DNA of 57,299 bases from Promethearchaeota archaeon (GCA_048941015.1 JBHLNZ010000014.1:1-57299); one strand, 5' to 3'; positions 2,599 to 37,495 are shown, numbered from the stretch's first letter. Notes: generated by a model not told the origin, from the sequence alone. Program-made: numbers and translations.

Positions 2599-4104
2599 AT
2601 GCGATTGAATCAAATTAAGGTATTAGAAAATGATGAGATTCAAATTATTCATAACAATACTCTTGATTTATTAGAAAAAGTAGGAGTAAAAATTGAATCA
2701 GATGAAGCTAAGAATTTATTAAAAAAGAACGGTGCTATTGTAGAAAAAGATAATGATTATGTCAAATTTCCAGAATCTTTTATCAAAGAGCAATTGAAAA
2801 AAGTTCCTGATTCCTTTAAATTATGGGGTTCTGATGGATCATTCAGTTTTGAAGTAGATACAAAAAACACACAATATGCAACTGTAGGTACTCCTATTAA
2901 AATCTACGATCCATCTTCGAAAAAAGGAATTAGAAAAACCGTTTTAGAAGATACCATCAAACAGATTCGAATTGTAGATAGTTTAAAAAATATTATGTGT
3001 TCACATGTAGATGTGTGGCCAAATGATGTACCCTATTTAGAAACTCATTATCATGCAATAAAGGCTTGGGCAGAAAATAGTTATAAACCATATGGACTTG
3101 GATGCTATGGTAGAGTTGCTAGTCAAGATATGATGCATTTAACGTCCCTTATAGTTGGAGGTGAAGATGAATTAAAATCTAAACCCCGTTTAATCGGTTT
3201 TTTTAATCCTACAAGTCCTCTAATGTTAACTAAAATTTTATTAAATGGTTTATTTGTTTTTGCGAAGTATAACCAACCTACAATAATCGCTCCAGCAGCT
3301 AGTGCAGGAGCTACAGCACCCGTAACATTAGCAGGGTTATTAGTTCAATCTAATATGGAAATATTGTCTTCTATAGTTCTTACTCAATTAATTAATCCTG
3401 GTTGTCCTGTATTTTATTCTTCAATGAATGCCCCCATGGATCCCCCTACTGGAAATGTTGCTTGGGGCTCGATAGAAACCGGATTAATTACTGGAGCAAC
3501 GGCTCAATTAGGGCGATTTTATAATATCCCATCACGTGGTCCCGGAGCAGTAACAGAATCTAAATGTTTTGATATACAGAATGGATTCGAGCGTTTTATG
3601 ACTTTATTTTATGCCGCAAATTCCGGTATAAATTATATTACCTGTGCAGGAACTTACGAATCTTCTTTAGCTGAAGCCCTAGAACTTTTAGTTGTTGATG
3701 ATGAATTAATCGATATAATCAAGCGTGGGATGAACGGTATTAGAGTTAATGATGAAACTCTTGCTATAGATGAAATAAAAAGAGTAGCAAATGAAGGAAA
3801 AAATTATTTGATGTTAAAACATACAGCTAAAAATACTCGAAAAGAAATTTTTGTGCCAAAACTTGCCAATCGTGACCGTAGGGGCACATGGATAAAGCAA
3901 GGAGCAAAAGATATAATTTTAACTGCAAGAGAGAAGGTGGAATCTATATTGAAAGAACAAAAAGGTCCAGGTATTAATCCAAATGTTGAGAAAAACTTTA
4001 AGGAATATTTTAAAATTATTTCATCAAGAACTTATGATGATTTTCGGAAAGCAGAAAATCTTGATGACACATCTGAGGTCAAGGGTATAATAGGGGAAGA
4101 GTGA
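2599..4104 (+). CDS. mttB: Second non-pyrrolysine MttB-superfamily methyltransferase
   Basis: Paralog of 244..1773 (QYATVGTPIKIYDPS, TIKQIRIVDSL, GINYITCAGTYE); Val (GAVTESK) at the Pyl position. Confidence 0.9.
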   Translation: MRLNQIKVLENDEIQIIHNNTLDLLEKVGVKIESDEAKNLLKKNGAIVEKDNDYVKFPESFIKEQLKKVPDSFKLWGSDGSFSFEVDTKNTQYATVGTPIKIYDPSSKKGIRKTVLEDTIKQIRIVDSLKNIMCSHVDVWPNDVPYLETHYHAIKAWAENSYKPYGLGCYGRVASQDMMHLTSLIVGGEDELKSKPRLIGFFNPTSPLMLTKILLNGLFVFAKYNQPTIIAPAASAGATAPVTLAGLLVQSNMEILSSIVLTQLINPGCPVFYSSMNAPMDPPTGNVAWGSIETGLITGATAQLGRFYNIPSRGPGAVTESKCFDIQNGFERFMTLFYAANSGINYITCAGTYESSLAEALELLVVDDELIDIIKRGMNGIRVNDETLAIDEIKRVANEGKNYLMLKHTAKNTRKEIFVPKLANRDRRGTWIKQGAKDIILTAREKVESILKEQKGPGINPNVEKNFKEYFKIISSRTYDDFRKAENLDDTSEVKGIIGEE

Positions 4105-5387
4105 TCAAGATGGAACAGAGAAAAAAACCATATAGTGAAGTTATAAAGGAACATAGAAAGGTTTGGGATAAATTTAAATTTGATACTCAGCAAATAAGAG
4201 CCGGAGAAGATCCTTATCCTGAAACATCTCACAGTATCCGAACTCCAATTTATGCTGCTAAATCCTATACCTATACGACATTATCGGAACTAATGAAACA
4301 TAATTATTTTTACGCCCGAACAGAAAATCCTACTGTATATGCACTAGACAATAAATTAGCTACACTCCATGGAGGGGAAAGTGGTCTTTCAGTCGCTTCT
4401 GGAATGGCAGCAGTTCACTTAGCATGCTCAAGCGTCTTTCAGGAAAGAATAGAACGTGTTCGACCTAAAAAAGTAAAAAACTTTCTCCCTCAGTCCAAAC
4501 CTGATGAGATCCCAAATATTTTAATCCATACTAACCTATATACCGGGGTTTACAGATTAATTACGAAATTGTATCCTCAAATGGGAATTGAATTTCGACA
4601 AGTAAACATGTGTAATTTAAATGAACTTAAAAATGCGATTGATAATAATTCCAGATTAATTATATTTGAGACTCCAGCAAATCCTTCTCTTGATATAATT
4701 GACATAGAAGCATGCGCTAATTTGATTCATGAAGTTGGAGGGAAATGTATTGTTGATAATACATTTGCATCACCTGCCCTTCAGCGACCACTTGAATTTG
4801 GAGCTGACTTAATAGTCGAAAGCCTCACAAAGTATATTAATGGGCATGGGGATGCGATGGGGGGAGCAATTATTGGTCCTAAAACTGAAATCCAAAATAT
4901 TAAATATTTTTGGCTGGAAACCCAAGGTCACGTATTAAGTCCTTTTAGTGCTTGGTTAATTTTACGGGGATGCCGAACTTTAAGTCTTAGAATGGAGAAA
5001 CATTGCTCAAATGCGTATCAAATTGCTGAGTATTTAAATAGTAATCCGAAAGTTTCTAAAGTTATTTATCCTGGCTTTGAATCGCATCCTGGACATGAAA
5101 TTGCCAAAAAGCAAATGAGTAATTTCGGAGGTATGATAGGCTTTGAGTTAAATTCTGTAGAAGAAAGTAATAAATTTATAGAGCTGCTCAAGTTAATTAA
5201 AGTTGGAGTATCTTTAGGTGATACTACATCCCTTATTGAAAATACATCTATAATGTTAGGAATAGATCTAGCATCTTGGGAAAAAAAATTCATGAATATT
5301 TCAGATACCCATTTTAGATTTTCTGTTGGTTTAGAGGATCCTGAAGATTTAATTCAAGATTTAGAACAAGCTTTAAATAAAATATAA
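4101..5387 (+). CDS. Cys/Met metabolism PLP-dependent enzyme (methionine gamma-lyase / cystathionine gamma-synthase-like)
   Basis: YARTENPT, SGMAA, ETPANP, DNTFASP, PLP lysine in SLTKYINGHGD, VSLG, RFSVGLED; GTGA overlap with upstream mttB (ATG at 4110 is an alternative start). Confidence 0.88.
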   Translation: MIKMEQRKKPYSEVIKEHRKVWDKFKFDTQQIRAGEDPYPETSHSIRTPIYAAKSYTYTTLSELMKHNYFYARTENPTVYALDNKLATLHGGESGLSVASGMAAVHLACSSVFQERIERVRPKKVKNFLPQSKPDEIPNILIHTNLYTGVYRLITKLYPQMGIEFRQVNMCNLNELKNAIDNNSRLIIFETPANPSLDIIDIEACANLIHEVGGKCIVDNTFASPALQRPLEFGADLIVESLTKYINGHGDAMGGAIIGPKTEIQNIKYFWLETQGHVLSPFSAWLILRGCRTLSLRMEKHCSNAYQIAEYLNSNPKVSKVIYPGFESHPGHEIAKKQMSNFGGMIGFELNSVEESNKFIELLKLIKVGVSLGDTTSLIENTSIMLGIDLASWEKKFMNISDTHFRFSVGLEDPEDLIQDLEQALNKI

Positions 5388-23083: not shown

Positions 23084-24190
23084 ATGCAAGAATTTGATAT
23101 AATTGTTGTAGGAGCTGGTCCAGGGGGGTCAATTGCTGCTAAAGTTGCTTCAGAAAATGGTTATTCAACATGTATAATTGAAAAAGAACAAATTAGTGAG
23201 GATGGACGATATAAAGCATGCGGTGGAGCAATTGCATGGGAACTGGTAGAGGAAATCGATTACCCTGAAGATAAAATTGGCAGAATAATTGAATCCTTAG
23301 AATTACATCATGTTGATGGAGAAGTGTTCTCAAAGAAAGGAAAAGGTGCAGTTGTTTGGCGAAATGTTTTTGATAAATTTTTGACCGACATGGCCATCAA
23401 TAGTGGAGCTATATTAAAAGAAAAAGAAGCTTTGTCTAATTTAAAAAAAGAAGGGGATTTTTATCAAATTACTACTAAAAAGGATAACTATATAACTAAA
23501 TACATAATTGCAGCAGATGGAGTTGCATCTCAAACTTTAAAATTGTTAAATTGGCCTTATTTCAAGAGTGAAAATATAATTTTAACGATTACTCAAGAGA
23601 TGAAAACCACGAAATCATATATCGATCAGGTTCTTGGAAATGACACAGTTCACTTATTTTTTGGCATTGAAAATCTCATACCGATTGGATACGCATGGTT
23701 ATTTCCAAAAAAGGAACATATAACAGTTGGATGGGGAAATCAAATCAATTTAATAAAAAATTCAAGAGAAGAATTCAAAAAATTTACTTCATTACCAATT
23801 GTTAAACAGGCATTAAAAGATTCAACAATAGACATTTTTCAACCTCATTTAATCCCGGTGGGATTGAGATCTAAACTTTATCAAGATAATATTTTTGCGG
23901 TTGGAGATGCTGGTGGAATAGTTGATCCTATAAGTGGAAAGGGGATTCCATATGCTATGATGTCAGGGCAATTTGCTATTGAATCAATAATTATGTGCGA
24001 AAAGAGAGATAAACTCGATAAATTAGGAATCCAATATGAAAGATTATTGGATAGAAAATTTTTAAAAATATTAAAAGCTAAAAGGGAAGCACGAGATCGT
24101 ATTTTTCAGAGTGATGAAACCTTAAAGAAATTTTTATCGCTTTGGGAAAATCATCGTAGCTCTGAAATAGTTATGAGAAAATTAATTTAA
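23084..24190 (+). CDS. Geranylgeranyl reductase-family FAD oxidoreductase
   Basis: GAGPGG, KACGGAI, AADG, GYAWLFP, VGDAGG..DPISGKGI. Confidence 0.9.
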   Translation: MQEFDIIVVGAGPGGSIAAKVASENGYSTCIIEKEQISEDGRYKACGGAIAWELVEEIDYPEDKIGRIIESLELHHVDGEVFSKKGKGAVVWRNVFDKFLTDMAINSGAILKEKEALSNLKKEGDFYQITTKKDNYITKYIIAADGVASQTLKLLNWPYFKSENIILTITQEMKTTKSYIDQVLGNDTVHLFFGIENLIPIGYAWLFPKKEHITVGWGNQINLIKNSREEFKKFTSLPIVKQALKDSTIDIFQPHLIPVGLRSKLYQDNIFAVGDAGGIVDPISGKGIPYAMMSGQFAIESIIMCEKRDKLDKLGIQYERLLDRKFLKILKAKREARDRIFQSDETLKKFLSLWENHRSSEIVMRKLI

Positions 24191-24206: not shown

Positions 24207-25274
24207 TTGAAATTTACTGAGTATGTGAAAACGTATATTCCCAAAATAAATCAAGCAATTGAATCAATATACGATAAAAAGTTAAAGAATGTAAAGAATA
24301 AATTTTTACAGGAATATTATAGGGAATTAAAAGCGTATTTTTTATCAGGAGGAAAGAGAATCCGTCCTTTACTATGCATTGCTACATATAATGCATTTAA
24401 TAAAGAACGAGATGATAAAATAATCGTTCCTAGTGTAGGTGTTGAATTTCTTCATAATGCTTCTTTAATTCATGATGATATCATAGATAAAGATAATTTT
24501 AGAAGAGGAAATCCTGCATTTCATTTTAGATTTCAAAATTACCATAAAAACTATAACTTAAAAAAAATGAGTAGCATTGACTTTGGTAATTCTATTGGAA
24601 TAATAGGAGGAGATTCTGCTTTTTTCATAGGATTGGAAGCTTATCTTTTCAATGAGTTTGAGAGAGATTTGAATTTGAATGCAATAAAGTATTATGAACA
24701 AGCTTTTATAGATATTGCGAATGGCGTATTGATTGAAACAGATATGGTTAATCAAAAAATATTGCAAATTGAAGACTATATTGAAATGATCTCATTAAAA
24801 ACAGGTGCTTTACTAGAAAAATCAATTTTAATAGGAGCTAATTATGCTAATGCTAAAGAAAAATATATATCTCTTTTATCTACATATGGAATAAATCTAG
24901 GAATAATTTTCCAAATAATTGATGACATTTTAGGAACTTTTGGAGATGAAAAAGTCACCGGAAAACCTACTGATGGAGACATTAGAGAAGGTAAAAAAAC
25001 TTGCTTATTGATTGGAGCCTATAATAAACTAAACGTTGATGATAGAGACCACCTTAATCAATTAATTCAGAATCAGAATATCACAGATAAAGAGGTTCAA
25101 GAGATTAAAAATCTATTCTTAAAAGCAGACGTTGTCAATTCAAGCAAATTGTTAGCAGATAATTACTATAAAGAGGCTAAAATCTCGCTTAATAAATTAA
25201 AACCGATAATTAATAGTTCAGAATTAGAGTTCTTTGAAGATTTATTGAACTTTGTAATTTATAGGAATTTTTAA
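24207..25274 (+). CDS. trans-Polyprenyl diphosphate synthase (GGPP synthase-like)
   Basis: GGKRIRP, first Asp-rich motif LIHDDIID..RRG, KTG, second motif FQIIDDILG, DIREGKKT. Confidence 0.92.
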   Translation: MKFTEYVKTYIPKINQAIESIYDKKLKNVKNKFLQEYYRELKAYFLSGGKRIRPLLCIATYNAFNKERDDKIIVPSVGVEFLHNASLIHDDIIDKDNFRRGNPAFHFRFQNYHKNYNLKKMSSIDFGNSIGIIGGDSAFFIGLEAYLFNEFERDLNLNAIKYYEQAFIDIANGVLIETDMVNQKILQIEDYIEMISLKTGALLEKSILIGANYANAKEKYISLLSTYGINLGIIFQIIDDILGTFGDEKVTGKPTDGDIREGKKTCLLIGAYNKLNVDDRDHLNQLIQNQNITDKEVQEIKNLFLKADVVNSSKLLADNYYKEAKISLNKLKPIINSSELEFFEDLLNFVIYRNF

Positions 25275-25372: not shown

Positions 25373-25930
25373 GTGTTAATAGCTATAACAGGTGCTTCAG
25401 GTATTATTATCGCAATAAAGTTATTAGAACAATTGAAAAAAAAAGGAATTGTCACTGAATTAATTATTTCAAAAGTAGCTGAAAAAATTATTTTAACTGA
25501 AACAGAATATCAAATCAAAGAAATACGCAGCTTAGCAGATAAAAATTATGATGTTGATGACTTAACAGCAGCTCCTGCTAGTGGTTCTTATAAAATAAAC
25601 AATATGATTATTGTTCCATGTTCAATGAAAACTTTAGCTGCAATTGCGAATGGTTATGCAGATAATTTGATTACAAGAGCAGCGGACGTAATGATTAAAG
25701 AGAAGAGAAAATTAATTCTTGTGGTGAGAGAAAGTCCTTTTAGTGCAATTCATCTTGAAAATATGCTCAAGCTTGCGAGACTTGGAGTGATAATTGCTCC
25801 TCCCATCCCTGCATATTATATTAAACCTAGTAGTATCAATGAAATTAATGAATATTTTGTGGGTAGAATTTTAGATCATATTGGAATTGATAGTGGGATA
25901 AAAAGATGGGGAGAAGAGCAAGATAGATAG
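25373..25930 (+). CDS. ubiX: Flavin prenyltransferase (prFMN synthase)
   Basis: ITGASG, ASGS, PCSMKTLAAIANG, RAADV, RESP, HLENML, PAYY. Confidence 0.95.
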   Translation: MLIAITGASGIIIAIKLLEQLKKKGIVTELIISKVAEKIILTETEYQIKEIRSLADKNYDVDDLTAAPASGSYKINNMIIVPCSMKTLAAIANGYADNLITRAADVMIKEKRKLILVVRESPFSAIHLENMLKLARLGVIIAPPIPAYYIKPSSINEINEYFVGRILDHIGIDSGIKRWGEEQDR

Positions 25931-25974
25931 AATCGCATATTAAACACAAAAAAGTATTCTAGATAAAAAAAGAT

Positions 25975-27876
25975 TTATTGATTTAACCACTGATATAATC
26001 TTCCAAGAATTACATACTTTTTCTGATTGCTTTTTAATTCACTAATTTTTTTGAGATTCATTAACCACAAACTTGACCGTAATTCATTCTTTAACGTTTT
26101 AATTTCCCTAATAGTGTTTTCAATTTTATGATTTTTAAGATCTTCCCAAGCAGATAATAAAAATTTGTATGCAAAACCACTAATATCAGCTCCTAACGCT
26201 ATTGATTTAGCAATATCTATTCCTGTTTTTAATCCTCCTGTGGCGATAATAATCTTGTTAGATACCTTTCTCACATTTATTATACTTACTGGAGTAGGGA
26301 TCCCCCATTCTCTAAAAACATCTGCAGGATTTCGTGAGTACTTATCATTATCAAAATTATCCCGCATTGATTCAATGGCAGCAAAACTAGTTCCTCCAGT
26401 TCCTCCAACGTCAAATCCATCAAAACCAAGCCCATCTAATATCGAAGCACCACCTTGATTAAAACCTGTTCCCACTTCTTTAGCAATTATAGGTAGATCA
26501 TAGTTTGCCCTAATTTTTTCAAAATTCTTTCGGAAATACTTATAGGAAATATCTCCTTTATCCTGAACAAGTTCATGTAAAGCATTGAAATGAATAGCCA
26601 TTGAATCAGCATTTACCATCTCAATACACTTCTCAAAACTTTTAATATCGAAGGTTGGATCACTAATTTGACCGACTCCGATATTTCCAATTATTGGTAT
26701 GTTCGGAGCAAACTTCCTAACTACTCTGAATGATTCAATTGTTGAAGGATCAGCTAATCCCGCACGTTGACTTCCTACACTCATTATGACTTTCTCTGCT
26801 TCAGCAGCTTTAGCTAAAATTTCATTAATATCTCTGGATAGCGGATGACCACCAGTTATAGCAGCAATACATATAGGAGCAGATATCATTTTACTAAAAA
26901 ATTTGGTAGAAAGATCAATTTCACTGAAATTTATTTCTGGAAATGGATGATGTAATAGTTTGATCTCTTTAAAATAATTTTCAGAATGTTGTACATCAAA
27001 TTCTATTGGGATTTTTAAATGCTCAAATTTTCTTTCTTTAATATCTTCAACTTTATCCCTTTTAGGTGGATCTATTTTTGTACTTATTACATCTTTAGAA
27101 TTTAAGGCATTCAAAATATAATCCTCTTTTAATCCGTTTATAATTTGAACAGGTATATTTTTAATACAAATTTTTTTAATAATATCAATTTTTCCTTGTA
27201 TACCCCCTGTAACATCAATTTTTTCACCTAATTTAGCTAATTTTAAATCATCTAATTTATCAGAAGTAACCTGAGATACTAAAATTACATTACTTTCTTC
27301 ATTATTATTACTCTGTATGAAGATTCCATCTTTTTCAATTGCAAATATGACTTTTGAAACATTGTACTTGTGTAAATTTTGGCATAATTCTAATATAATT
27401 TGATCTCCAGAAATAATTGAAAAAGATCCTTTAGAATCAAAAATAATATCTCCATATAAAATAGGTAACAAGCCCATATCAAGAGCGGCTTCCATAGTTT
27501 CAATTGAACGAATTAAGATTTTTTGAGAATCCTTAAAAAATATACTCGAAGGCTGAAACTGAATTACAGGATAGTTTTTCTTTAAAAATTTATTAACTAT
27601 TAATGTGTTTAGCTTATTCATAGCTTCATGAGTTTCTGAGAGTCCTAAAAGTTGATTTTCAATTGATTTATTGTAGCCTTTAGAAATACTATACTTTTTA
27701 GCTACTGGATGACCAAAAGAGCCACCACCATGAATTAAAATAAGCTTTTGCTCACTATTAATAATTTGATTAATCGAACTTTCTATAACATCTTCTCTAA
27801 TAGAAAATGGTTTACTTTTATCGGTTAAAAGACTTCCGCCTAACTTTAATAAGACTACTTTAGTTTTATTTATCAA
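25975..27876 (-). CDS. fni: Fusion: isopentenyl phosphate kinase (N-terminal) + type 2 IPP:DMAPP isomerase (C-terminal)
   Basis: IPK: KLGGSLLTDK, HGGGSFGH, ISGD, DVTGGIQGK. IDI-2: RKFEH, TGG, GSQR, KEVG, GGTS, WGIPT, KSIALGA. Confidence 0.92.
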   Translation of the reverse strand: MINKTKVVLLKLGGSLLTDKSKPFSIREDVIESSINQIINSEQKLILIHGGGSFGHPVAKKYSISKGYNKSIENQLLGLSETHEAMNKLNTLIVNKFLKKNYPVIQFQPSSIFFKDSQKILIRSIETMEAALDMGLLPILYGDIIFDSKGSFSIISGDQIILELCQNLHKYNVSKVIFAIEKDGIFIQSNNNEESNVILVSQVTSDKLDDLKLAKLGEKIDVTGGIQGKIDIIKKICIKNIPVQIINGLKEDYILNALNSKDVISTKIDPPKRDKVEDIKERKFEHLKIPIEFDVQHSENYFKEIKLLHHPFPEINFSEIDLSTKFFSKMISAPICIAAITGGHPLSRDINEILAKAAEAEKVIMSVGSQRAGLADPSTIESFRVVRKFAPNIPIIGNIGVGQISDPTFDIKSFEKCIEMVNADSMAIHFNALHELVQDKGDISYKYFRKNFEKIRANYDLPIIAKEVGTGFNQGGASILDGLGFDGFDVGGTGGTSFAAIESMRDNFDNDKYSRNPADVFREWGIPTPVSIINVRKVSNKIIIATGGLKTGIDIAKSIALGADISGFAYKFLLSAWEDLKNHKIENTIREIKTLKNELRSSLWLMNLKKISELKSNQKKYVILGRLYQWLNQ

Positions 27877-27889
27877 TTTTAATACTCTA

Positions 27890-28825
27890 TTATCCTATCA
27901 TGGTTTTCCAGGCATTATATCCTGCTTTTTCAATAGATTGGGCAACTTTTTCCTGTATTTTTCCATTTTCAGTTAAAGCAATAACCAAACCACCTCGACC
28001 AGTCCCCGTTATTTTAGCACCAAGTGCGCCATTTTTTAGGGTTATATCAACTAACTGATCATTTATATCTCCAGATACCGTTATTTCTTGGAGTAATTTA
28101 TGATTTTGGTTCATTAAATCACCTATCGCTATAATGTCGCCTTTAATTAGAGCTTTTTTTGCCTTATTTACTAAATTTTTATATTCATTAAAAATTTTTT
28201 TAAATTTATCTGGACTTTCTTCCTTTAAACGTCGAACATCTGCAACCACCTCTGAAGTTGAGGCTGTTATTCCTGAATTAGCAATTACTAAAGGCATTTT
28301 TTTTGGTGAGTTTAGAAGCTCCATAATATTTTTTCCACCCTGTAAGTTTTTAACAAACCAAATTAACCCCCCATAGGTAGAAGCGGTGTTATCAATCCCA
28401 GATGGCGTTCCATGATACGCTTTCTCACCTTCATAAGCAGTGTTATTAAGTTTTTCATCATCTAGATTAAGATTAAATAATTTATTAAGAGCACGAGCTA
28501 AAGATGTACATTGAGCAGCAGAAGCACCTACTCCACTTGCGGCAACTAAATCACCAGCAAAAGTTATTTCTAATTTCTGATTTTCTGTATTAATATTTAA
28601 GTGATTAATAACATTTCTAACTGATTGCAATCCCTCTTCATATTTCTTTTGTTTGTATCCCGGTGTAGCAAGTCTTTGATCATCAACAGTCCAACCACTA
28701 CCCTTGACCACTTTAACATCTGCAGTAGTGACAGAACCCAAAGCGGATGCGATTGCTGGTAACCCATAAACTACAAAATGTTCTCCGAATAATATTGTCT
28801 TTCCATATCCTTTCCCAATAACCAT
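27890..28825 (-). CDS. mvk: Mevalonate kinase
   Basis: GKTILFGEHFVVYG, SGVGASAA, HGTPSGID, GAKITGTGRGG. Confidence 0.93.
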   Translation of the reverse strand: MVIGKGYGKTILFGEHFVVYGLPAIASALGSVTTADVKVVKGSGWTVDDQRLATPGYKQKKYEEGLQSVRNVINHLNINTENQKLEITFAGDLVAASGVGASAAQCTSLARALNKLFNLNLDDEKLNNTAYEGEKAYHGTPSGIDNTASTYGGLIWFVKNLQGGKNIMELLNSPKKMPLVIANSGITASTSEVVADVRRLKEESPDKFKKIFNEYKNLVNKAKKALIKGDIIAIGDLMNQNHKLLQEITVSGDINDQLVDITLKNGALGAKITGTGRGGLVIALTENGKIQEKVAQSIEKAGYNAWKTMIG

Positions 28826-29215
28826 TTATTTCACCAACACCGTCCCTTCCGATCCATCAACAACTAATTTTTGACCCGTTTTAATATTATTAATATCTAT
28901 TTTGTCCACACATGGAATTTCGCTGATGATACAACCCACTGCGATAATTGTATCGATTTCCTTATTAATAATTGCTGCTGGAGCGGTTTTATTTTTCATC
29001 ATTCTATACATTGTATAAGAGCCAACTGTAGAACCTTTACCTGTGGGAAAAACTAATACTTTCCCTGTTATGGATTCTCCTTCGAGTTCATGGCCTACCT
29101 CAACAATCTTACCTGTATCAGGATCAACACCTCCATAAAAGGAAATTCCCTCTTTAGTCACTATTGCTTCAGCTTCTACAATCCCTTTATAAATTTTTCT
29201 TCCTTTTAACTTCAT
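28826..29215 (-). CDS. Phosphomevalonate dehydratase small subunit (AcnX swivel, DUF126)
   Basis: ISFYGGVDPDTG, GKGSTVGS; operon context. Confidence 0.9.
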   Translation of the reverse strand: MKLKGRKIYKGIVEAEAIVTKEGISFYGGVDPDTGKIVEVGHELEGESITGKVLVFPTGKGSTVGSYTMYRMMKNKTAPAAIINKEIDTIIAVGCIISEIPCVDKIDINNIKTGQKLVVDGSEGTVLVK

Positions 29216-30414
29216 TTTATAGACTCCTCAACGCATTGTTCGATAGTTCCAATTTTTACTTTAAATTTATTTTTAGCACGACCATAATAACATGCTTTAG
29301 CAGAATCCACCATAATTCCTTTAAATCGACCTTTAATTGGAGCTACTACACAACAAGTATCTGCTGCAAATTTTGCTCCAGCACTTTCAATTATTTTAGA
29401 ATATCCCGCTTCGTCTGCAATCCTTTTTGTAGGTCGAGCAGTAGTAATCCAAAATTCTTTCTTTACTCTTTTTCCCTCTAATAATCTCGCGATTTCTGCG
29501 ATTTCATGAATTGAAGCGTGAGGACAACCAATACTAATAAAATCTATTACGAGATCAGTGTCAATGAGTTCAGATCTGGCTTTTAATAGGTTATCCTGGT
29601 TAATTTCAAAAATAATATCACTTGGTTTTGGATATTTATCAAACTCGGGAGTTATTCCTTCCATATGAAATAGTGCTACTCCACCATACGTAGCAATAGA
29701 AGCACAAAATGACTTAAGTTCTTCAAGAGTAGCGGAAGGAATTCCTTCAATATAAGGTACTTTTTTTCCTAATTCAACTAATTTATCACCAATTATTTTT
29801 CCTAATACACCAAATTCGTCAGTACCTTTAACAGGAGCATTTACTTTTATTAAAACCTGACCATGACGATTTTGATTTAAATGATAGCCATATTTAGGAG
29901 TTTTTCCTGTTATGGCAGAAGCCAATGCACTTGGTCCTCCCTCGCGATTAGTTCGAGCACCAATAACAGAGTTTGCATAACATACGGCACTACTCTCTGC
30001 CCATGCGATATGTTGTCCAAAATGGGGGGTATTTCCAATTAAATATGGTGTACAAGAACAAGTAGTAATAATCCCCATTTTCGCAAACGCATCAATTGCA
30101 CGATTCTGATTTTTAGCAAATTCCTCATCGATTCCCAATGCTTGCCAATTTTCGCGATCCATCCCTGCAGGATTTAAAGTTGTTAATACTCTAACTTTAC
30201 CATCTTCTGCTATTTCATTTAAAAATTCTAAACCTGCTTCGCTTAGATTATCATAGGAAACTCCAGCTATCTGAACTCCATAAACATCAACCAGACATTC
30301 CGCATCAAAAATTTCACCAAGAATGTTCAAAATTTCCATAGATTTTTGAGCGGCTCTTCCATACTTACCATTGAGCATATCTTGTTCTTCAGGAGTTAAT
30401 TTCATTATGATCAA
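29212..30414 (-). CDS. Phosphomevalonate dehydratase large subunit (aconitase X, DUF521)
   Basis: QIAGVSY, TTLNP, CSCTPY, WAESSA, GARTNREGG, GCPH, DTCCVV, SAKA..Y. Confidence 0.92.
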   Translation of the reverse strand: MIIMKLTPEEQDMLNGKYGRAAQKSMEILNILGEIFDAECLVDVYGVQIAGVSYDNLSEAGLEFLNEIAEDGKVRVLTTLNPAGMDRENWQALGIDEEFAKNQNRAIDAFAKMGIITTCSCTPYLIGNTPHFGQHIAWAESSAVCYANSVIGARTNREGGPSALASAITGKTPKYGYHLNQNRHGQVLIKVNAPVKGTDEFGVLGKIIGDKLVELGKKVPYIEGIPSATLEELKSFCASIATYGGVALFHMEGITPEFDKYPKPSDIIFEINQDNLLKARSELIDTDLVIDFISIGCPHASIHEIAEIARLLEGKRVKKEFWITTARPTKRIADEAGYSKIIESAGAKFAADTCCVVAPIKGRFKGIMVDSAKACYYGRAKNKFKVKIGTIEQCVEESIK

Positions 30415-30423
30415 ATCCTTATA

Positions 30424-31725
30424 TTAAAAATATTTGTCTATATCCACTTTAGGAAACTCCGCTATATCGAAGCTCTTTCCCTTAACTTTAAGTGGTTTAG
30501 TTAAATCAAATCCAATTTTTGTAGTCATTTTTGTTCCGGGCTCAGCACTGGGGTCTAAACTACTACCTGGTTCTTTTTCTTTAATAATCATTCTAGTATC
30601 TCCTTGAAATCGAGTTGCCATTGCCCATTCTACAGAAAGAGGATTATAAATATCGATATCATTATCTACAATAAATACATGTTTACAACTGGTATGCCCA
30701 GCAAAAGCACCCTCTATTGCCTTTTTACCATCTTCTTCTGACTTTTTGTCAATTTGAACAATTGCATGCAACCAAGAACAACCACCGGGATTTACATTTA
30801 CATCTAAGCACTTAACTCCAGTTTCATTCACCTTTTTAAATATTGTAGGTTCCCGAGGCATTCCCATCAATATTTTATGTTCAAGAGCACCAGGTAGTAA
30901 TGCTTGCCAAATGGCATTCTTTCTATGTGTAATTTTTTGTACTTCGAAAATCGGTTCTTCTCTAACTATATCATAAGTTTCTGTAAGATCCACAAAGGGT
31001 CCTTCAGCATGTTTTTCTTCTAAATAAACACGACCTTCTAAAACAATCTCTGCTTCTGCTGGGATTAAAAGGTCGACTGATTTTGCTTTGATAACTTTAA
31101 TTGGTTCTAAAGAGTTTGCGATAGATAATTCATCAATTCCAATATCTACTGATGTTGCTCCTGCAATTAAAATATTAGGCGTATTTCCTATACAAAATGC
31201 AACATCTAATTCATCATTTCTTTCTAAAAATTGATGAAAATGACGACCACTAACAACTCGCGTTGAAAACTTATTTTTCGAGAATTGCATGGCTCGATGA
31301 AAATCCATATTTTGACCATACTCAGGATCTCTAGTAATAACTACAGCGGAACTAATGTAATTTCCACCATCTTTTTCACAATGGAAAAGAATTGGTAATT
31401 TATCTAAATCTATTGCTGATTCAATAATTTCCTGGCAAGGAGCCCTTGATACAATTTCTGGTTCTGAACGCTCAGTAATAGCCTTTGAAAGCATAGGTAT
31501 GAGATCAGCAGGAGTCACACCAAAATATGAAGCAATAGTCTCTTTGGTACAAAAAATGTTACCAGCAACCCTATATTTTGATTCCTTAACATTATTAAAC
31601 AATACTTGAATAGGTTCTAATTCCTTTAAAATTCCTGAAATCTCTAATTTCTTTGAAACTTCAACATCTATTTTTCGAAGAAGTCCTTCTTCATCAATTT
31701 TTATTATATAATCTCTAAAGCCCAT
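30424..31725 (-). CDS. UbiD-family anhydromevalonate phosphate decarboxylase
   Basis: DGGNYI, HR, EGPFVDLTETY, VDNDIDI, VEWAMATR, SSLDPS, KIGFDLTKP; next to the PMDh subunits and ubiX. Confidence 0.88.
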   Translation of the reverse strand: MGFRDYIIKIDEEGLLRKIDVEVSKKLEISGILKELEPIQVLFNNVKESKYRVAGNIFCTKETIASYFGVTPADLIPMLSKAITERSEPEIVSRAPCQEIIESAIDLDKLPILFHCEKDGGNYISSAVVITRDPEYGQNMDFHRAMQFSKNKFSTRVVSGRHFHQFLERNDELDVAFCIGNTPNILIAGATSVDIGIDELSIANSLEPIKVIKAKSVDLLIPAEAEIVLEGRVYLEEKHAEGPFVDLTETYDIVREEPIFEVQKITHRKNAIWQALLPGALEHKILMGMPREPTIFKKVNETGVKCLDVNVNPGGCSWLHAIVQIDKKSEEDGKKAIEGAFAGHTSCKHVFIVDNDIDIYNPLSVEWAMATRFQGDTRMIIKEKEPGSSLDPSAEPGTKMTTKIGFDLTKPLKVKGKSFDIAEFPKVDIDKYF

Positions 31726-31812
31726 AAACTCATCTCAAAATTTCTTAATTATAATACTATTCTCAATAAATAGGATTTTCTTAAAAGATTTACTGAAAAA
31801 TTTATAAAAATA

Positions 31813-33105
31813 TTAAAGTTTTTCACCTTCCTTTATACTTTGCAAAATTTCCTTTGCATAATCTACTCGGATTTTTTTGTCTTCAACTAATTTATTTGCA
31901 ACTCTTTCTATAAGTTCATCTGGTACTCCAGCAATTTTTGCGATATTTCTAGAATGTAATTTCATATGTCCTTCCTGTATCCCTTCGGCTGCTAAAGCTC
32001 TTAAAGCCGCAACATTTTGGGCCAAGCCTAAGGCGGCAGCGACTTGTGATAGTTCTTCAGCACTTTGAATGTTCAAGATTTTTAAAGCTAGGCGTGCCAT
32101 TGGGTGTATTTTTGTCATCCCACCAATTATACCAAGAGCAAGAGGAATTTCTATTTCACCAATAAGATTACCTTTAGAATCTAATCGATAATTTGTTAAT
32201 GGCCTATATTTTCCTTTTAATGATGCATAGGCATGAGCACCTGCCTCTATAGCTCTAGTGTCATTACCTGTTGCTAAAGTTAAAGCTATGATTCCATTTA
32301 ATATTCCTTTATTATGTGTAGTTGCTCTATATGGATCTGCCAGAGCGAATTCATATGCAGATAATATCCCTTCAACAACCTTTTCACCACCTAATAATTC
32401 TTTGTCAAACACGGCGTTACATCGTGCTATTCTATGTGTCGCCAAATTTGATACAATCCTAAGATTTACTTTTCCTCCACTTATTTCTTCTATGTAAGAA
32501 CTTACAGCTTCAGCCATAGTGTTTACAACATTAGCACCCATCGCATCTAGAACATTAACTAAAAGGTGAACAATTACCATTTTCTCTTTTCTAGTGGTAA
32601 TTTCTCTGAATTCTATATCTTGAGCCCCACCACCTAATTTTACTAAAAGGGGATCCTGTTCGTTTGCTATTTTTAAAATATTTACTTTCTTTCTAATCAA
32701 TAATTCCTTCGTTTTTTTAACATCTTCTAATTGAGTTAATTGTATTTGGGAAATCATTATTGGTTTAACTTTTTCTGAATGAAAACCCCCGTGTTTTCTA
32801 GCCATTTTAGCTGCGTTTGATGCTGCTGCTACTACAGAAGGTTCTTCTATTACCATTGGAATGATATAGTCTTTATTATTAACTTTGAAATTAAATGCAA
32901 TTCCCAAAGGCAACTGATAACTGCCAATTACATTCTCAATTAAAGAATCCATATGATTAGGATTAAAATAACCGAAGTTTTTTAATAGGTTTAAATCTTC
33001 TTGATCAAGATTTAAAAGTTTAGATAATAATTGGTGTCTCTCTTCTATGGATAATTTATAAAACCCAGAGATTTCTGAATTGAATTCACTCATTTCTATA
33101 ATCAC
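31813..33105 (-). CDS. mvaA: Class II HMG-CoA reductase
   Basis: ENVIG, EEPSVVAA, DAMGAN, THNKGI, GNDTRAIEA, GIQEGHMKLH. Confidence 0.93.
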   Translation of the reverse strand: MIIEMSEFNSEISGFYKLSIEERHQLLSKLLNLDQEDLNLLKNFGYFNPNHMDSLIENVIGSYQLPLGIAFNFKVNNKDYIIPMVIEEPSVVAAASNAAKMARKHGGFHSEKVKPIMISQIQLTQLEDVKKTKELLIRKKVNILKIANEQDPLLVKLGGGAQDIEFREITTRKEKMVIVHLLVNVLDAMGANVVNTMAEAVSSYIEEISGGKVNLRIVSNLATHRIARCNAVFDKELLGGEKVVEGILSAYEFALADPYRATTHNKGILNGIIALTLATGNDTRAIEAGAHAYASLKGKYRPLTNYRLDSKGNLIGEIEIPLALGIIGGMTKIHPMARLALKILNIQSAEELSQVAAALGLAQNVAALRALAAEGIQEGHMKLHSRNIAKIAGVPDELIERVANKLVEDKKIRVDYAKEILQSIKEGEKL

Positions 33106-34313
33106 GTTAAATTAAGTTTTAAATTTGTTATATCTTTTTCTAATTTTTTTGCTTCAGAGGAATTAGGACTTAAGATTTTACTTGGTCCTCCGATTTTACC
33201 TTCTATTAATTGATAATTTGGGACAATATTTTTAATTATGTCATAAACTTCCTTTTTCTCACTTTGATTAGTTATAACTACTATGGATGGACCTGTATCA
33301 ATTGAAAAATATACATTATAACCACTTTCGCGTAATTCACGAATCTTTAGGATTACTTTTAAAGTATCGGGGTTCCAAGCAATTATATTTTGATTGGACG
33401 GGGCTGTCATTGTAACTGCATGTAAGCATAAAGTATCGTATTCGGCTAATTCTCCTATTTTATTTAAATTATTATTATCTAATGCGTCAATGAACTCAAA
33501 TATTAAATTTTTTCTTACCTTTAACCAAGATTGGAAGAAAAGGGATTTTGGGGCAATTGAATGTGCTTGAGTTGTTTTGATCTCCGATTTGATTGGAATC
33601 GTTAAAAGTGATATGTTTTTGATAAATGATTGATGTTCTTTTCTATCTAATCGGATTGCAAAACTTTGAAGTGGGTCAATCTGTGGATGGCTTAACCAAA
33701 GCGAGAAACCACCAGAAGCACTACGACAACCGGATCCAGAGAGATATCTTGAAACAATACTTATTAATCTTTGATTAGTTATGTAGTTAGGATCATTATC
33801 GTAAATAATAGATAATGCTGCCAAGGCTAATGCTGCAGAACCAGAAGCAGATGTTCCTAAACCTTTTCCAATTTCATTTGATTCTCTTAGTTTTGAAAAA
33901 TTTCGAGAGATTAAAATAGCATTAGTTTTTATATTAGAATAGTTGCGAATAAAATCCAATGCGGCCTTAACTTTTAGTAATTCTTCTCCAAATAATTGCT
34001 TTCCATTTAAATAAGCAATATCTTCCTTAAGATCTTCATTAAAGTTCAAATATGATATTGTAAAAAGACTGTTATTATTTAAAGAAATACTTGGAAAATA
34101 AGCTATTTTATTGATAGAGTCCGTTAACCCATGGTATTTTAATACTCCCTGAATCGGATAGGCAATAGTAAATGCTTCACCAATTTTATTTTTACCATTT
34201 GTTTGAATTGGAAGATCATCAAAGTTATACCCTTTTTTCACTATAACCTGCCGAATCTCATCATAATCACGATGCAATTGGTTGATAAGTGAATTAGGTA
34301 TAGGAAATGACAT
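33102..34313 (-). CDS. mvaD: ATP-dependent phosphomevalonate decarboxylase, haloarchaeal type (GHMP family)
   Basis: YPIQGVLKYHG (haloarchaeal PMD has HPIQGLVKYHG; classical DMD has NIALIKYWG), GLGTSASG, SGSGCRS, AEYDTL..TMTAP, catalytic Asp in YFSIDTGPS, GGP. Confidence 0.8.
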   Translation of the reverse strand: MSFPIPNSLINQLHRDYDEIRQVIVKKGYNFDDLPIQTNGKNKIGEAFTIAYPIQGVLKYHGLTDSINKIAYFPSISLNNNSLFTISYLNFNEDLKEDIAYLNGKQLFGEELLKVKAALDFIRNYSNIKTNAILISRNFSKLRESNEIGKGLGTSASGSAALALAALSIIYDNDPNYITNQRLISIVSRYLSGSGCRSASGGFSLWLSHPQIDPLQSFAIRLDRKEHQSFIKNISLLTIPIKSEIKTTQAHSIAPKSLFFQSWLKVRKNLIFEFIDALDNNNLNKIGELAEYDTLCLHAVTMTAPSNQNIIAWNPDTLKVILKIRELRESGYNVYFSIDTGPSIVVITNQSEKKEVYDIIKNIVPNYQLIEGKIGGPSKILSPNSSEAKKLEKDITNLKLNLT

Positions 34314-34340: not shown

Positions 34341-35969
34341 TTAATAAATATATTGAACAGGAATATATACCGGAGTCCAATTTAATAAACCAATAGCGTT
34401 GATATTTTTCTCATCTCCATTTTCTATACGCCTTATTTCATATTCTAATGGAGTTCCTTCTTCAACATTATAGGCTATTCTTACAAGGTCATTACATAAA
34501 TGGCTTAAATCATTTTTCAGAGGATTTTCTATTGATTTAGACTCCAAAACTGCAAAAAGTGGGAAAAATTTCTCATGAAATCCCGTATGTCCTTTTGGAC
34601 AATGATTCAATCCTTCAATATTGGGAATAATACAACCTTCATCACAAAAATGAAGTGTAAAACCTCTTTTATTATTCTTTTCATGTTCTACGATTTTTCC
34701 TAAAACCGTCTTTATTATAGACTTACCATTTTTCATTAATTCATATTCTTCAACAGTTTTACGTTCTTTATATTCTATGAAATCATTAATCTTAGGAGGT
34801 TTATCAATTACTTTCTTAAATCCTCCTTTAACTTTTAATAAACCGGAAATACACGTTGCTCCTGAACCATAGGAACCGAAATAAATTGTATCGTTTTCTC
34901 GACCATAATTTTCAAGAATGTAAATAATTTGGGCCCAAATTGAAGCATTATACATGTTACCAAAATGTGATGGTACTCTTAATTGCGGAAGAACTTTACC
35001 TTTAACATTTCTTACCAATATATGAGATAATCTCTCTAAGGCTTCTGAAGAATATCCTCGCTCTTTTAGCTTTAAATATAACCATTCTGGCAAAACAGTA
35101 AGATCATGCATAAAATAATCAAGTTTCTTTAGAAGGGAGGTAGTTACTTGATTTTTTTTTAATTTTGGAAGATTATTAATGTGTTTTATCCAACGTTTTT
35201 GAATTATATGTTGCATACATTTTATTGGTAATTTCGAGAATGGTGCGTGAAATGTATAAAAATCAGCATGAAAATCTCCAATGTTTCTAATTAAATCATC
35301 ATAAGCTTGTAATTGAAAATTAAGATAGGTATCGACGGAATAATGACCAAAAGCCTGGGCGTCTTTTTCATAAGCAGGCCTAAAAAAATCATCTACATTT
35401 CCTGATATCTTTCCAAATTTTTCACTAAAGGCTGCAACTCTGGGATTCTTTGAAATAACTAAAGCAGTTGCTCCTGAACCCTGTGTAGGTTCACTTGGAG
35501 AACCCATACGATAGGAAGAAATATCAGTACTGATAATTAAAGCCTTATTTATAATCTCTTTTTCTATTAAAGCAATTGCATTGAGGATTGCTAGAGTACC
35601 GCCCGCACAAGCATTATAAATGTCTTGGGTAAATGAATTAGGTGATATCTCTAATAATTGGGCAAAAATATTTGAAATACTCTTTACACTATATGTAATT
35701 GTTTCTGTTCCAACAAAAATTGCATCGATAGTTTTAGGAGAGATACCCCCCTTTAATAGGGCTTGATATCCTGCTTTCAATCCTAATGAAACAACATCTT
35801 CATCTACTTCAGGTACCCTCATCTCTATTGACATTAAACCTTTCTTATACTTATAAGGGTCAACCTTTCGCTCTTTAGCTAGATCTTTTAACTTTATATA
35901 GTATCGGGGTGCTGAGAAGCCAACTGAATCGATCCCAATATTACTAAATAAAAAGTCGTTTGGTATCAT
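34341..35969 (-). CDS. mvaS: HMG-CoA synthase (MvaS-like) with C-terminal Zn-ribbon/DUF35-like extension
   Basis: IGID, VGTET (Glu), NACAGG (Cys), EPTQGSGA, DFFRP, FHAPF (His), GNMY, SYGSG; tail CDEGC-x10-CPKGH. Confidence 0.88.
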   Translation of the reverse strand: MIPNDFLFSNIGIDSVGFSAPRYYIKLKDLAKERKVDPYKYKKGLMSIEMRVPEVDEDVVSLGLKAGYQALLKGGISPKTIDAIFVGTETITYSVKSISNIFAQLLEISPNSFTQDIYNACAGGTLAILNAIALIEKEIINKALIISTDISSYRMGSPSEPTQGSGATALVISKNPRVAAFSEKFGKISGNVDDFFRPAYEKDAQAFGHYSVDTYLNFQLQAYDDLIRNIGDFHADFYTFHAPFSKLPIKCMQHIIQKRWIKHINNLPKLKKNQVTTSLLKKLDYFMHDLTVLPEWLYLKLKERGYSSEALERLSHILVRNVKGKVLPQLRVPSHFGNMYNASIWAQIIYILENYGRENDTIYFGSYGSGATCISGLLKVKGGFKKVIDKPPKINDFIEYKERKTVEEYELMKNGKSIIKTVLGKIVEHEKNNKRGFTLHFCDEGCIIPNIEGLNHCPKGHTGFHEKFFPLFAVLESKSIENPLKNDLSHLCNDLVRIAYNVEEGTPLEYEIRRIENGDEKNINAIGLLNWTPVYIPVQYIY

Positions 35970-36769: not shown

Positions 36770-37495
36770 GTGGAAGAATTAAAGGATATACCAAAAAGCA
36801 AATTACCTAAGCATATTGGTCTAATCCTTGATGGAAATCGTCGTTGGGCAGTAAAAAATCTCCTTAATGTTAATGTTGGACACTTGATAGGATATGAAAA
36901 TTTAAAAAAAAGATTATTTGATTTCTTTGATGCTGGAATTCATTATTTAAGTATTTATGCATTATCTCTTGAAAATGTAAGAAGAAGAAGTGAAGATGAA
37001 ATAGTCTATATTTTTAAAATTATTTTAGATGCTGTTGATACTGTAATAAAAGAATCTACGGTCAAAGAAGAGAAAGTTAAATTTAACGTAATTGGCAGAA
37101 TACATTTACTCCCTCAGAAAGTGCAAGATAAAATTAATGAATTGATTGAATTCACAAAAGAATACGATCAAAATTTTATCAATTTGTGTATAATGTATGA
37201 TGGGCAAGATGAAATCGTAGATGCTGTCAGAAATATTGTAAAGGATGGTATTAAAGTTGATGAGATTAATCGTGAATTAATTAAGAGTTATTTATATACA
37301 CGATATTTTCCTGAGGTAGATTATATAATTAGAACGGGGATGGAAGATGGGGCAAGGATTTCAGGATTTCTATTATGGGATTCTTCATATGCAGAATTTA
37401 AATTTAGGAAGGACTTATGGCCAGATTATAATAAAGAAATGATAATTGAAGACTTACTCGATTATGTTGAAAGGAATAGAAGGAAAGGAAAATAG
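36770..37495 (+). CDS. uppS: cis-Prenyltransferase (polyprenyl diphosphate synthase)
   Basis: HIGLILDGNRRWA, SLEN, IRTG..RISGFLLW, YAE, LWPD, C-terminal RRKG. Confidence 0.95.
   Translation: MEELKDIPKSKLPKHIGLILDGNRRWAVKNLLNVNVGHLIGYENLKKRLFDFFDAGIHYLSIYALSLENVRRRSEDEIVYIFKIILDAVDTVIKESTVKEEKVKFNVIGRIHLLPQKVQDKINELIEFTKEYDQNFINLCIMYDGQDEIVDAVRNIVKDGIKVDEINRELIKSYLYTRYFPEVDYIIRTGMEDGARISGFLLWDSSYAEFKFRKDLWPDYNKEMIIEDLLDYVERNRRKGK

Follow-up and report, generated by a model that had tools for sequence, protein, structure and literature searches.

A mevalonate gene cluster with two putative routes from mevalonate 5-phosphate to isopentenyl phosphate in a Loki-type Asgard archaeon

Sequence analysis of a contig from a Promethearchaeota archaeon (GCA_048941015.1, JBHLNZ010000014.1:1-57299) revealed a gene cluster of the mevalonate (MVA) pathway that probably encodes two parallel conversions of mevalonate 5-phosphate (MVA-5-P) to isopentenyl phosphate (IP). 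We read the cluster as a complete mevalonate operon in which the two conversions are partly redundant and have long been kept, and give this reading a probability of about 0.65. The window analyzed here is the entire 57-kb contig (57,299 nucleotides), whose parent bin comprises 3.59 Mb and is 95% complete with an estimated contamination of 5.1%. Its family (here named f1) was assigned to an order that also holds genomes labelled Lokiarchaeota, and the host is treated as a Loki-type Asgard archaeon. Genes were called from a listing of open reading frames (ORFs) combined with profile searches using Pfam and NCBIfam/TIGRFAM models. As the original prediction had claimed, UbiX, both AcnX subunits of phosphomevalonate dehydratase (PMDh), a UbiD-family decarboxylase and a GHMP decarboxylase of 403 amino acids (here named P0001) are all present, each as an ORF with a matching profile (Table 1).

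On the minus strand, the genes are transcribed in the order HMG-CoA synthase (HMGS), P0001, HMG-CoA reductase (HMGR), UbiD, AcnX large subunit (AcnX-L), AcnX small subunit (AcnX-S), mevalonate kinase (MVK) and a fusion of isopentenyl phosphate kinase with type 2 isopentenyl diphosphate isomerase (IPK-IDI2). Intergenic gaps are at most 27 nt or replaced by overlaps throughout this run, the sole exception being an 87-nt spacer between HMGR and UbiD. The overlap of the decarboxylase and HMGR genes described earlier was recovered, with the decarboxylase stop sharing 4 nt with the listed GTG start of HMGR. On the plus strand, the run is flanked by UbiX and by genes for a polyprenyl synthase, a geranylgeranyl-reductase-like protein and a cis-prenyltransferase. 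In the first, archaeal route, which would use no ATP, the two AcnX subunits would act as a [4Fe-4S] PMDh, followed by a UbiD decarboxylase (AMPD) dependent on prenylated flavin mononucleotide (prFMN), the cofactor that UbiX would supply. In the second, a single ATP-dependent long-form phosphomevalonate decarboxylase (PMD) would phosphorylate the 3-hydroxyl group and then eliminate phosphate and CO2. AMPD requires prFMN and PMD requires ATP only. MVK would feed both routes, and the IPK-IDI2 fusion would complete both.

To place P0001, we compared it with the decarboxylase of mevalonate 3,5-bisphosphate (MBD), PMD and diphosphomevalonate decarboxylase (DMD), whose solved structures it matches over residues 9 to 381. 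Besides PF22700 (Table 1), a match to PF18376 (E = 1.5e-4) indicates an MDD-like GHMP fold whose N-terminal domain is MVD-like. The closest structures are the MBD of Picrophilus (PtoMBD, 7T71; E = 1.5e-32) and the PMD of Anaerolinea (6n0x; E = 2.8e-31), and all NCBIfam scores lie below the respective cut-offs, at 175.6 of 560 bits for BMD, 168.9 of 475 bits for PMD (MvaD, NF040704) and 117.9 of 171.35 bits for DMD (TIGR01240). The best 120 homologues are mostly 387 to 418 amino acids long, with a few fragments of 309 to 310, and the named entries among them carry Promethearchaeota, Lokiarchaeota or other Candidatus taxon labels. They include P0079 from Promethearchaeum (47% identity) and P0094 from Lokiarchaeum ossiferum (45%), the latter named phosphomevalonate decarboxylase.

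A tree was calculated with IQ-TREE (LG+C20 PMSF) from 56 rows, diverse representatives drawn from an exhaustive homologue search. Anchors were set by exact look-up and NCBIfam scores: P0180 is PtoMBD, the DMD rows exceed the TIGR01240 cut-off, and P0163, from the haloarchaeon Haladaptatus, reaches 454 bits with the PMD (MvaD) model, slightly under the 475-bit cut-off. Support was 100/100 for the Asgard clade with P0001, for MBD, for DMD and for all short forms together, and 95/92 for haloarchaeal PMD. Long forms of about 400 amino acids (Asgard, some Chloroflexota and a few unnamed) are spread along the backbone that separates MBD from the short forms. The haloarchaeal PMD label originally attached to P0001 was not borne out, as the protein sits in a separate Asgard long-form clade nearer the MBD side of the tree; it fails the MvaD equivalog cut-off and falls outside the characterised haloarchaeal/Chloroflexota PMD clade. 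By sequence, P0001 is assigned to a clade named Lokiarchaeial PMD and described as the sister of MBD by Zhu et al. 2024 (Microorganisms 12:707, PMC11052028); the enzyme of Promethearchaeum syntrophicum MK-D1 is a member as well. P0079 and P0094 group with P0001 at 100/100, and the clade is placed similarly with respect to the MBD of Thermoplasmatales. The N-terminal extension of about 45 amino acids in P0001 is common to long forms and the MBD clade and is thus not MBD-specific; its counterpart in PtoMBD is the extra helix alpha1 (PMC9254496).

Two further kinds of homologue were seen. The long forms P0127, P0128 and P0130, which have the same N-terminal extension, come from Chloroflexota-labelled marine (Tara) contigs and are placed close to the Asgard clade in the tree, so that an inter-domain transfer is conceivable. 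P0174, P0178, P0220, P0239 and P0264 (619 to 687 amino acids) are fused forms with the decarboxylase domain at the C terminus.

The translation of P0001 contains all three motifs named in the original prediction, YPIQGVLKYHG, AEYDTLCLHAVTMTAP and YFSIDTGPS. Its catalytic Asp is indeed intact, but it is D339 in YFSIDTGPS and not the Asp of AEYDTL: the literature and our alignment both put the catalytic residue in SIDTGPS, and the AEYDTL candidate was dismissed. D339, which is invariant across the Asgard clade, corresponds to D309 of PtoMBD and D280 of AthPMD, a residue missing in mevalonate 3-kinase (M3K) (PMC9254496). Also conserved through the clade are R197 in SGSGCRS, the carboxylate-binding Arg, and the phosphate-binding loop (P-loop) GLGTSASGSAA, with roles as described for these elements and the catalytic Asp (PMC9254496, PMC7414129). 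All MBDs compared read GLGES at the P-loop, versus GLGTSAS in P0001. The KYHG motif is found in 18 of 18 Asgard-clade sequences as well as in haloarchaeal and PMD-like ones, compared with K(Y/F)WGK in DMD and KFLGYY in MBD; the His of KYHG versus the Lys of DMD KYWGK is the criterion used by Zhu et al. (PMC11052028).

For a broader comparison, 59 columns conserved in at least 80% of ATP-dependent short forms were examined, 27 of which are lost in MBD. At eight of these 27, including S136, N138, E291 and Y60, the Asgard clade fully retains the ATP-type residue. S136 and N138 are 95 to 100% conserved in ATP-dependent homologues and 89% and 100% conserved in the Asgard clade; P0001 has both, and all eight MBD-clade sequences have replaced them, mostly by Arg. 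Since MBDs are reported to be without both ATP-binding residues (PMC5177888), we infer that S136 and N138 are this pair. The Lys that corresponds to K187 of DMD and the Ser that corresponds to S106 in the P-loop were also considered as discriminators and discarded, the Lys varying within the Asgard clade and the Ser among PMDs. P0001 does not qualify as a DMD (TIGR01240 score under the cut-off, KYHG instead of KYWGK, no phosphomevalonate kinase [PMK] found), as an M3K (D339 kept) or as an MBD, in which both near-invariant ATP-binding residues are lost. Its features are therefore of PMD type rather than DMD, MBD or M3K, as originally described, with the haloarchaeal membership being the part that did not hold. 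The residue balance, although mixed, favours ATP dependence.

The remainder of the genome fits this assignment. It holds a single MVD-like decarboxylase and a single UbiD alongside six GHMP kinases, one of which is the operon MVK; the other five best match pantoate kinase, RFAP synthase and sugar-kinase-like models. No PMK was found in this 95%-complete genome, either among the six GHMP kinases or by two PMK-type family searches, which MVK matched weakly only, and no M3K (NF040848) was found; mevalonate 3-phosphate 5-kinase (M3P5K) was not searched for. The context of a PMD pathway, with MVK and IPK in the operon and no PMK found, is thus present. In relatives whose genomes yielded neither UbiD nor a true AcnX and whose operons offer only MVK and IPK, the long-form enzyme is the sole candidate for the step to IP. 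Because ATP-type residues are kept, neither PMK nor M3K was found and the enzyme is the only candidate in those relatives, P0001 is most likely an ATP-dependent PMD, a prediction from sequence and context.

Compared with the Haloarchaea/Chloroflexota-type pathway (PMDs of Haloferax volcanii and Anaerolinea thermophila, 6n0x), P0001 would be expected to carry out the same chemistry, and it has the KYHG, AE.D and SIDTG motifs and the same surroundings of MVK and IPK with no PMK found. It differs in belonging to another clade, in being only about 33 to 38% identical to the sampled short-form PMD-type homologues, and in combining its low MvaD score with an N-terminal extension. With MBD it has in common the N-terminal helix region, a WLS(H/Y)P..ID loop and the catalytic Asp, in line with PtoMBD being its top structural match. 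MBD, in contrast, is without the ATP-binding Ser/Asn pair, reads GLGES and KFLGYY and partners with M3K and M3P5K.

Several observations weigh against P0001 being a PMD. It scores marginally better on the BMD model than on the PMD model, its top structural match is PtoMBD, and literature searches found no assayed member of the Asgard long-form clade. Eleven of the 27 columns lost in MBD are also lost in the Asgard clade, mostly by conservative hydrophobic changes, and the lysine of the loop equivalent to DMD K187 varies within the clade. Losses common to the Asgard clade and MBD include P71A, R263W and a G-to-L change, L191, whose counterpart V173 in PtoMBD lines the former ATP pocket. Together with the extension common to MBD, and since PtoMBD is activated by geranylgeranyl diphosphate (GGPP) bound in its former ATP site (PMC9254496), these features could fit an MBD-like, ATP-independent MVA-3,5-bisphosphate decarboxylase, a DMD, or a protein regulated by a ligand in the counterpart of the GGPP pocket of PtoMBD. 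We regard such another function as improbable. The genome yielded no M3K or PMK; KYHG, S136/N138, E291 and the P-loop positions with a hydroxyl group match the ATP-dependent type; and where relatives have no AcnX/UbiD, IP has to come from this enzyme with only MVK and IPK at hand. Zhu et al. made the same assignment from the same context argument, likewise reasoning from absent M3K and M3P5K (PMC11052028).

The genes of the first route were examined in the same manner. AcnX-L best matches 7cnr, the putative PMDh of T. kodakarensis (TkPMDh), with E = 1.8e-99, versus about 1e-55 for hydroxyproline dehydratases (7cnp, 7e-55). Its cysteines in CTPY, GCPH and DTC align with 7cnr, and the three [4Fe-4S] ligands of the A. 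pernix PMDh (C122, C297 and C356; sites A, 1 and B) are kept. With split subunits, three cysteines and a position nearer TkPMDh than hydroxyproline dehydratases, the pair is of AcnX type IIb. UbiD is the only one found in the genome and adjoins AcnX in all relatives examined; with UbiX also in the cluster, this context makes it the presumed AMPD. The locus thus resembles the Aeropyrum-type pathway in its split AcnX with three PMDh cysteines, the adjacent UbiD, and UbiX, MVK and IPK in the cluster, and differs in that a GHMP decarboxylase for this step is encoded in the cluster as well. A second split AcnX pair, which recurs in some relatives, was observed outside the mevalonate cluster (G000, contig C126, 53830-55471; L011); the large subunit of this pair shares 35% identity with that of PMDh and keeps the three cysteines.

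We then surveyed 301 sampled genomes of the phylum with P0001 and AcnX-L as queries, taking E < 1e-90 as the presence threshold for the long-form decarboxylase. The long form is present in 24 of the 301, namely 16 of 69 in f1, all seven in f2 (the sister family in the same order) and the only one in f3 (a further family). AcnX-L occurs in 256 genomes, including 61 of the 69 in f1, and in none of f2 or f3. When five f2/f3 genomes, including a closed one, were searched at the family level, no UbiD was detected and, for AcnX, only sub-threshold aconitase-like matches and one pseudogene piece. This piece, in the PMD-only genome G165 (L038, ~3847-4251), was considered as a PMDh relic and rejected, as tblastn showed a resemblance to the second AcnX paralogue of the C126 type rather than to PMDh. 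Both routes are found in 14 genomes, all in f1, and in 13 of these they lie on one contig, spread over four genera. Family f1 therefore shows every state: both routes, PMD only and AcnX/UbiD only. Within the window's own genus, 24 of the 28 genomes sampled lack the decarboxylase.

The gene order is likewise shared among relatives. The window's order from HMGS to IPK/IDI2 recurs in G065, G147 and G207; in G210, PMD lies between AcnX-S and MVK, its position also differs in G121, and G099 and G204 have the cluster without the decarboxylase. Genomes of f2 and f3 and two of f1 (G291 and G198) show HMGS-PMD-HMGR-MVK-IPK with no AcnX/UbiD, and the decarboxylase orthologues in such operons are 40 to 55% identical. 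With every state present in one family and the same order in relatives, the pairing cannot be an assembly artefact. A chimeric or contaminated assembly that merged the pathways of two organisms, which the estimated contamination of the bin might suggest, can practically be dismissed: GC content is uniform at about 0.3 along the contig, and the gene order, flanks included, is repeated without change on a congener's 137-kb contig (L013/L027) as well as in eleven further genomes. The statement that the two routes are normally alternatives also proved too strong, given the 13 sampled genomes with both on one contig and Table S3 of Zhu et al. 2024.

MVK appears to follow the first route. In PMD-only relatives, MVK is of a different type, 31 to 36% identical to that of the window (L017 11436-12413; L018 6459-7436; L036 7732-8706), and MVK of the window type adjoins AcnX in other Asgard families (50 to 58% identity), which suggests that MVK travels with the UbiD-AcnX block. 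We make no claim on the direction of route replacement, since vertical retention and block transfer are inseparable without a species tree. Some f1 genomes (G243, G008) carry a 339-amino-acid DMD-family gene between AcnX-S and MVK (TIGR01240, 235 bits; cut-off 171). Zhu et al. refer to this gene as "CR-4 DMD"; with it, an archaeal-type operon has taken up a GHMP decarboxylase of a second, independent kind. Its copies lie at L019 7511-8530 (-) and L020 8357-9376 (-), and those clusters contain no PMK.

Table 1. Genes and other features of the mevalonate cluster and its flanks in the window
Feature	Coordinates	Strand	Basis or remark
FAD-dependent geranylgeranyl-reductase-like gene	23084..24190	+	Pfam FAD_binding_3 + GGR_cat; colinear in relatives; flank of the isoprenoid supercluster
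trans-Polyprenyl (GGPP-type) synthase	24207..25274	+	PF00348, 187 bits
UbiX flavin prenyltransferase (prFMN for the UbiD decarboxylase)	25373..25930	+	TIGR00421, 249.6 bits (cut-off 108.9)
IPK-IDI2 fusion (IPK, residues 9-268; type 2 IPP isomerase, residues 281-618)	25975..27876	-	NF040647, 209 bits (cut-off 120); TIGR02151, 337 bits (cut-off 281)
Mevalonate kinase MVK, common to both routes	27890..28825	-	TIGR00549, 238.5 bits (cut-off 163)
AcnX small subunit, swivel domain of phosphomevalonate dehydratase, 129 aa	28826..29215	-	PF01989, 122 bits; NF003046, 178 bits (cut-off 163)
AcnX large subunit of phosphomevalonate dehydratase (type IIb), 400 aa, three Fe-S cysteines	29212..30414	-	PF04412, 494 bits
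UbiD-family decarboxylase, presumed AMPD	30424..31725	-	TIGR00148, 376 bits (cut-off 245)
AT-rich spacer, 87 nt, with conserved TATA-like block just past the HMGR stop; possible internal promoter	31726..31812	-	Spacer alignment, ten related genomes
Class II (NAD-type) HMG-CoA reductase	31813..33105	-	TIGR00532, 471 bits (cut-off 260)
Long-form GHMP decarboxylase P0001, 403 aa, presumed ATP-dependent PMD	33102..34313	-	PF22700, 85 bits (cut-off 27)
HMG-CoA synthase, bacterial-type core + C-terminal tail	34341..35969	-	PF01154, PF08540; TIGR01835, 225 bits, under its cut-off
cis-Prenyltransferase (UPPS-type), divergent neighbour	36770..37495	+	PF01255, 196 bits; adjoins HMGS in relatives too

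Two of the shared genes showed peculiarities of their own. IPK-IDI2 is a single protein of 633 amino acids here and in most of f1, and is encoded by separate genes in G210, G147 and G237 (L016, L023 and L018). HMGS has about 150 additional C-terminal residues past the Pfam HMGS domains (34341-34800, -).

Substitution rates were estimated by the Nei-Gojobori method for eight genome pairs. The dN/dS values were 0.17 to 0.35 for PMD, 0.12 to 0.34 for MVK, 0.11 to 0.16 for HMGR, 0.08 to 0.33 for UbiD and 0.06 to 0.13 for AcnX-L, and the genes of both routes are under purifying selection. The median of dN(PMD)/dN(HMGR) was 2.0 in genomes with both routes versus 1.3 in PMD-only genomes, i.e., PMD evolves about 1.5-fold faster in the former, the pairs being non-independent and the distant ones partly saturated. 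This is consistent with some relaxation due to redundancy. It might even be taken to mean that, in AcnX/UbiD genomes, the decarboxylase is a remnant in decay or a recently arrived passenger with no function, as might its patchy occurrence in the window's own genus and its differing positions in G210 and G121. We consider this very improbable: reading frames are intact and catalytic motifs kept in every copy examined, the dN/dS of PMD matches that of MVK from the same genomes, and the pairing persists over four genera with PMD identities down to about 58%. As a separate observation, dS differs several-fold between adjacent genes of one genome pair, e.g., 0.11 for PMD and 0.75 for UbiD, in the clusters of G252/G276, G207/G219 and G040/G129 (L034, L035, L024, L033, L028 and L029). 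Because neighbouring genes differ to this extent, recombination within the mevalonate cluster among related lineages is suggested.

The spacer between HMGR and UbiD is 60 to 90 nt long in ten relatives and opens with the conserved block TTTTATAAAAAGTG.TTC.GTAACT. It is plausible from its sequence that this block is an archaeal TATA element and hence an internal promoter creating two transcription units, with PMD grouped with HMGS and HMGR in one, and AcnX/UbiD with MVK and IPK-IDI2 in the other. Since PMD sits with HMGS/HMGR and AcnX/UbiD with MVK/IPK-IDI2, both routes are expected to be co-expressed, and would be expressed whenever the pathway is. Flux would then be partitioned by the state of enzymes and cofactors (Fe-S integrity, prFMN, ATP) and not by a dedicated genetic switch. 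A regulated switch, by which one route would be active and the other silent depending on oxygen, iron or energy status, as the original prediction envisaged, found no support in the sequence and seems unlikely. The prFMN need of AMPD and an oxygen-labile PMDh cluster, set against a PMD needing only ATP, do make a conditional advantage plausible, and the TATA-like block could let the halves be transcribed separately; the lability of the PMDh [4Fe-4S] cluster has been described (PMC10040528). However, each unit holds indispensable genes that both routes need, so neither can act as a route-specific switch, and silencing either would halt isoprenoid synthesis altogether. Furthermore, profile searches of the cluster and its neighbours revealed no regulator gene, and most congeners live with AcnX/UbiD alone.

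PMD may still have a conditional role, for example once Fe-S clusters or prFMN fail. The routes may have been kept for being non-equivalent, with PMD either an Fe-S- and prFMN-independent bypass under oxidative or iron stress or equipped with an MBD-like, prenyl-diphosphate-responsive pocket; we hold this explanation to be conceivable but doubtful. Partly redundant, parallel conversions thus remain our preferred reading, to be set against the facts that the AMPD identity of UbiD is drawn from context alone, that co-expression is deduced from gene spacing, that the conserved TATA-like block may divide the cluster into two transcripts, and that the dN ratios carry the limits given above.

Genomes combining a GHMP decarboxylase with acnX1/acnX2/AMPD have been recorded before. 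Table S3 of Zhu et al. 2024 lists PMD together with these genes in five Bathyarchaeia, several Thermoplasmata and one Lokiarchaeial metagenome-assembled genome (GCA_019058515), and DMD with acnX in four Lokiarchaeia and also in Hodarchaeales (PMC11052028). These are genome-level counts, and only the Hodarchaeales case, contigs carrying PMK and DMD with AcnX/AMPD, is discussed there. MK-D1 and its family have the PMD route only, whereas here the enzyme is found in one operon with AcnX/UbiD. What is new is the operon-level integration of a long-form PMD and the occurrence of all three states in one family; co-occurrence at the genome level had already been tabulated by Zhu et al. 2024.

The significance of the cluster is limited in that all its parts are of known families and the PMK/DMD step defining the eukaryotic pathway is untouched. 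As neither PMK nor DMD was found at the locus or in the genome, the claimed bearing on the origin of the eukaryotic MVA pathway holds in an indirect sense only. Schemes of the type of Aoki et al. 2022 reportedly assume that PMD emerged in a cell possessing AcnX/UbiD and went on to displace that route; such a scheme needs a stage with both routes. Family f1 presents this two-route stage as a stable, selected operon, with close relatives that would have resolved the redundant state either way, to PMD only or to AcnX/UbiD only. The Asgard clade, with its predicted PMD activity, is placed beside the origin of the ATP-independent MBD. The family also offers enzymes and genomes for testing the costs and benefits of ATP versus Fe-S and prFMN. 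If the routes are indeed non-equivalent, one Asgard family would be a natural system for studying why variants of the mevalonate pathway replaced one another.

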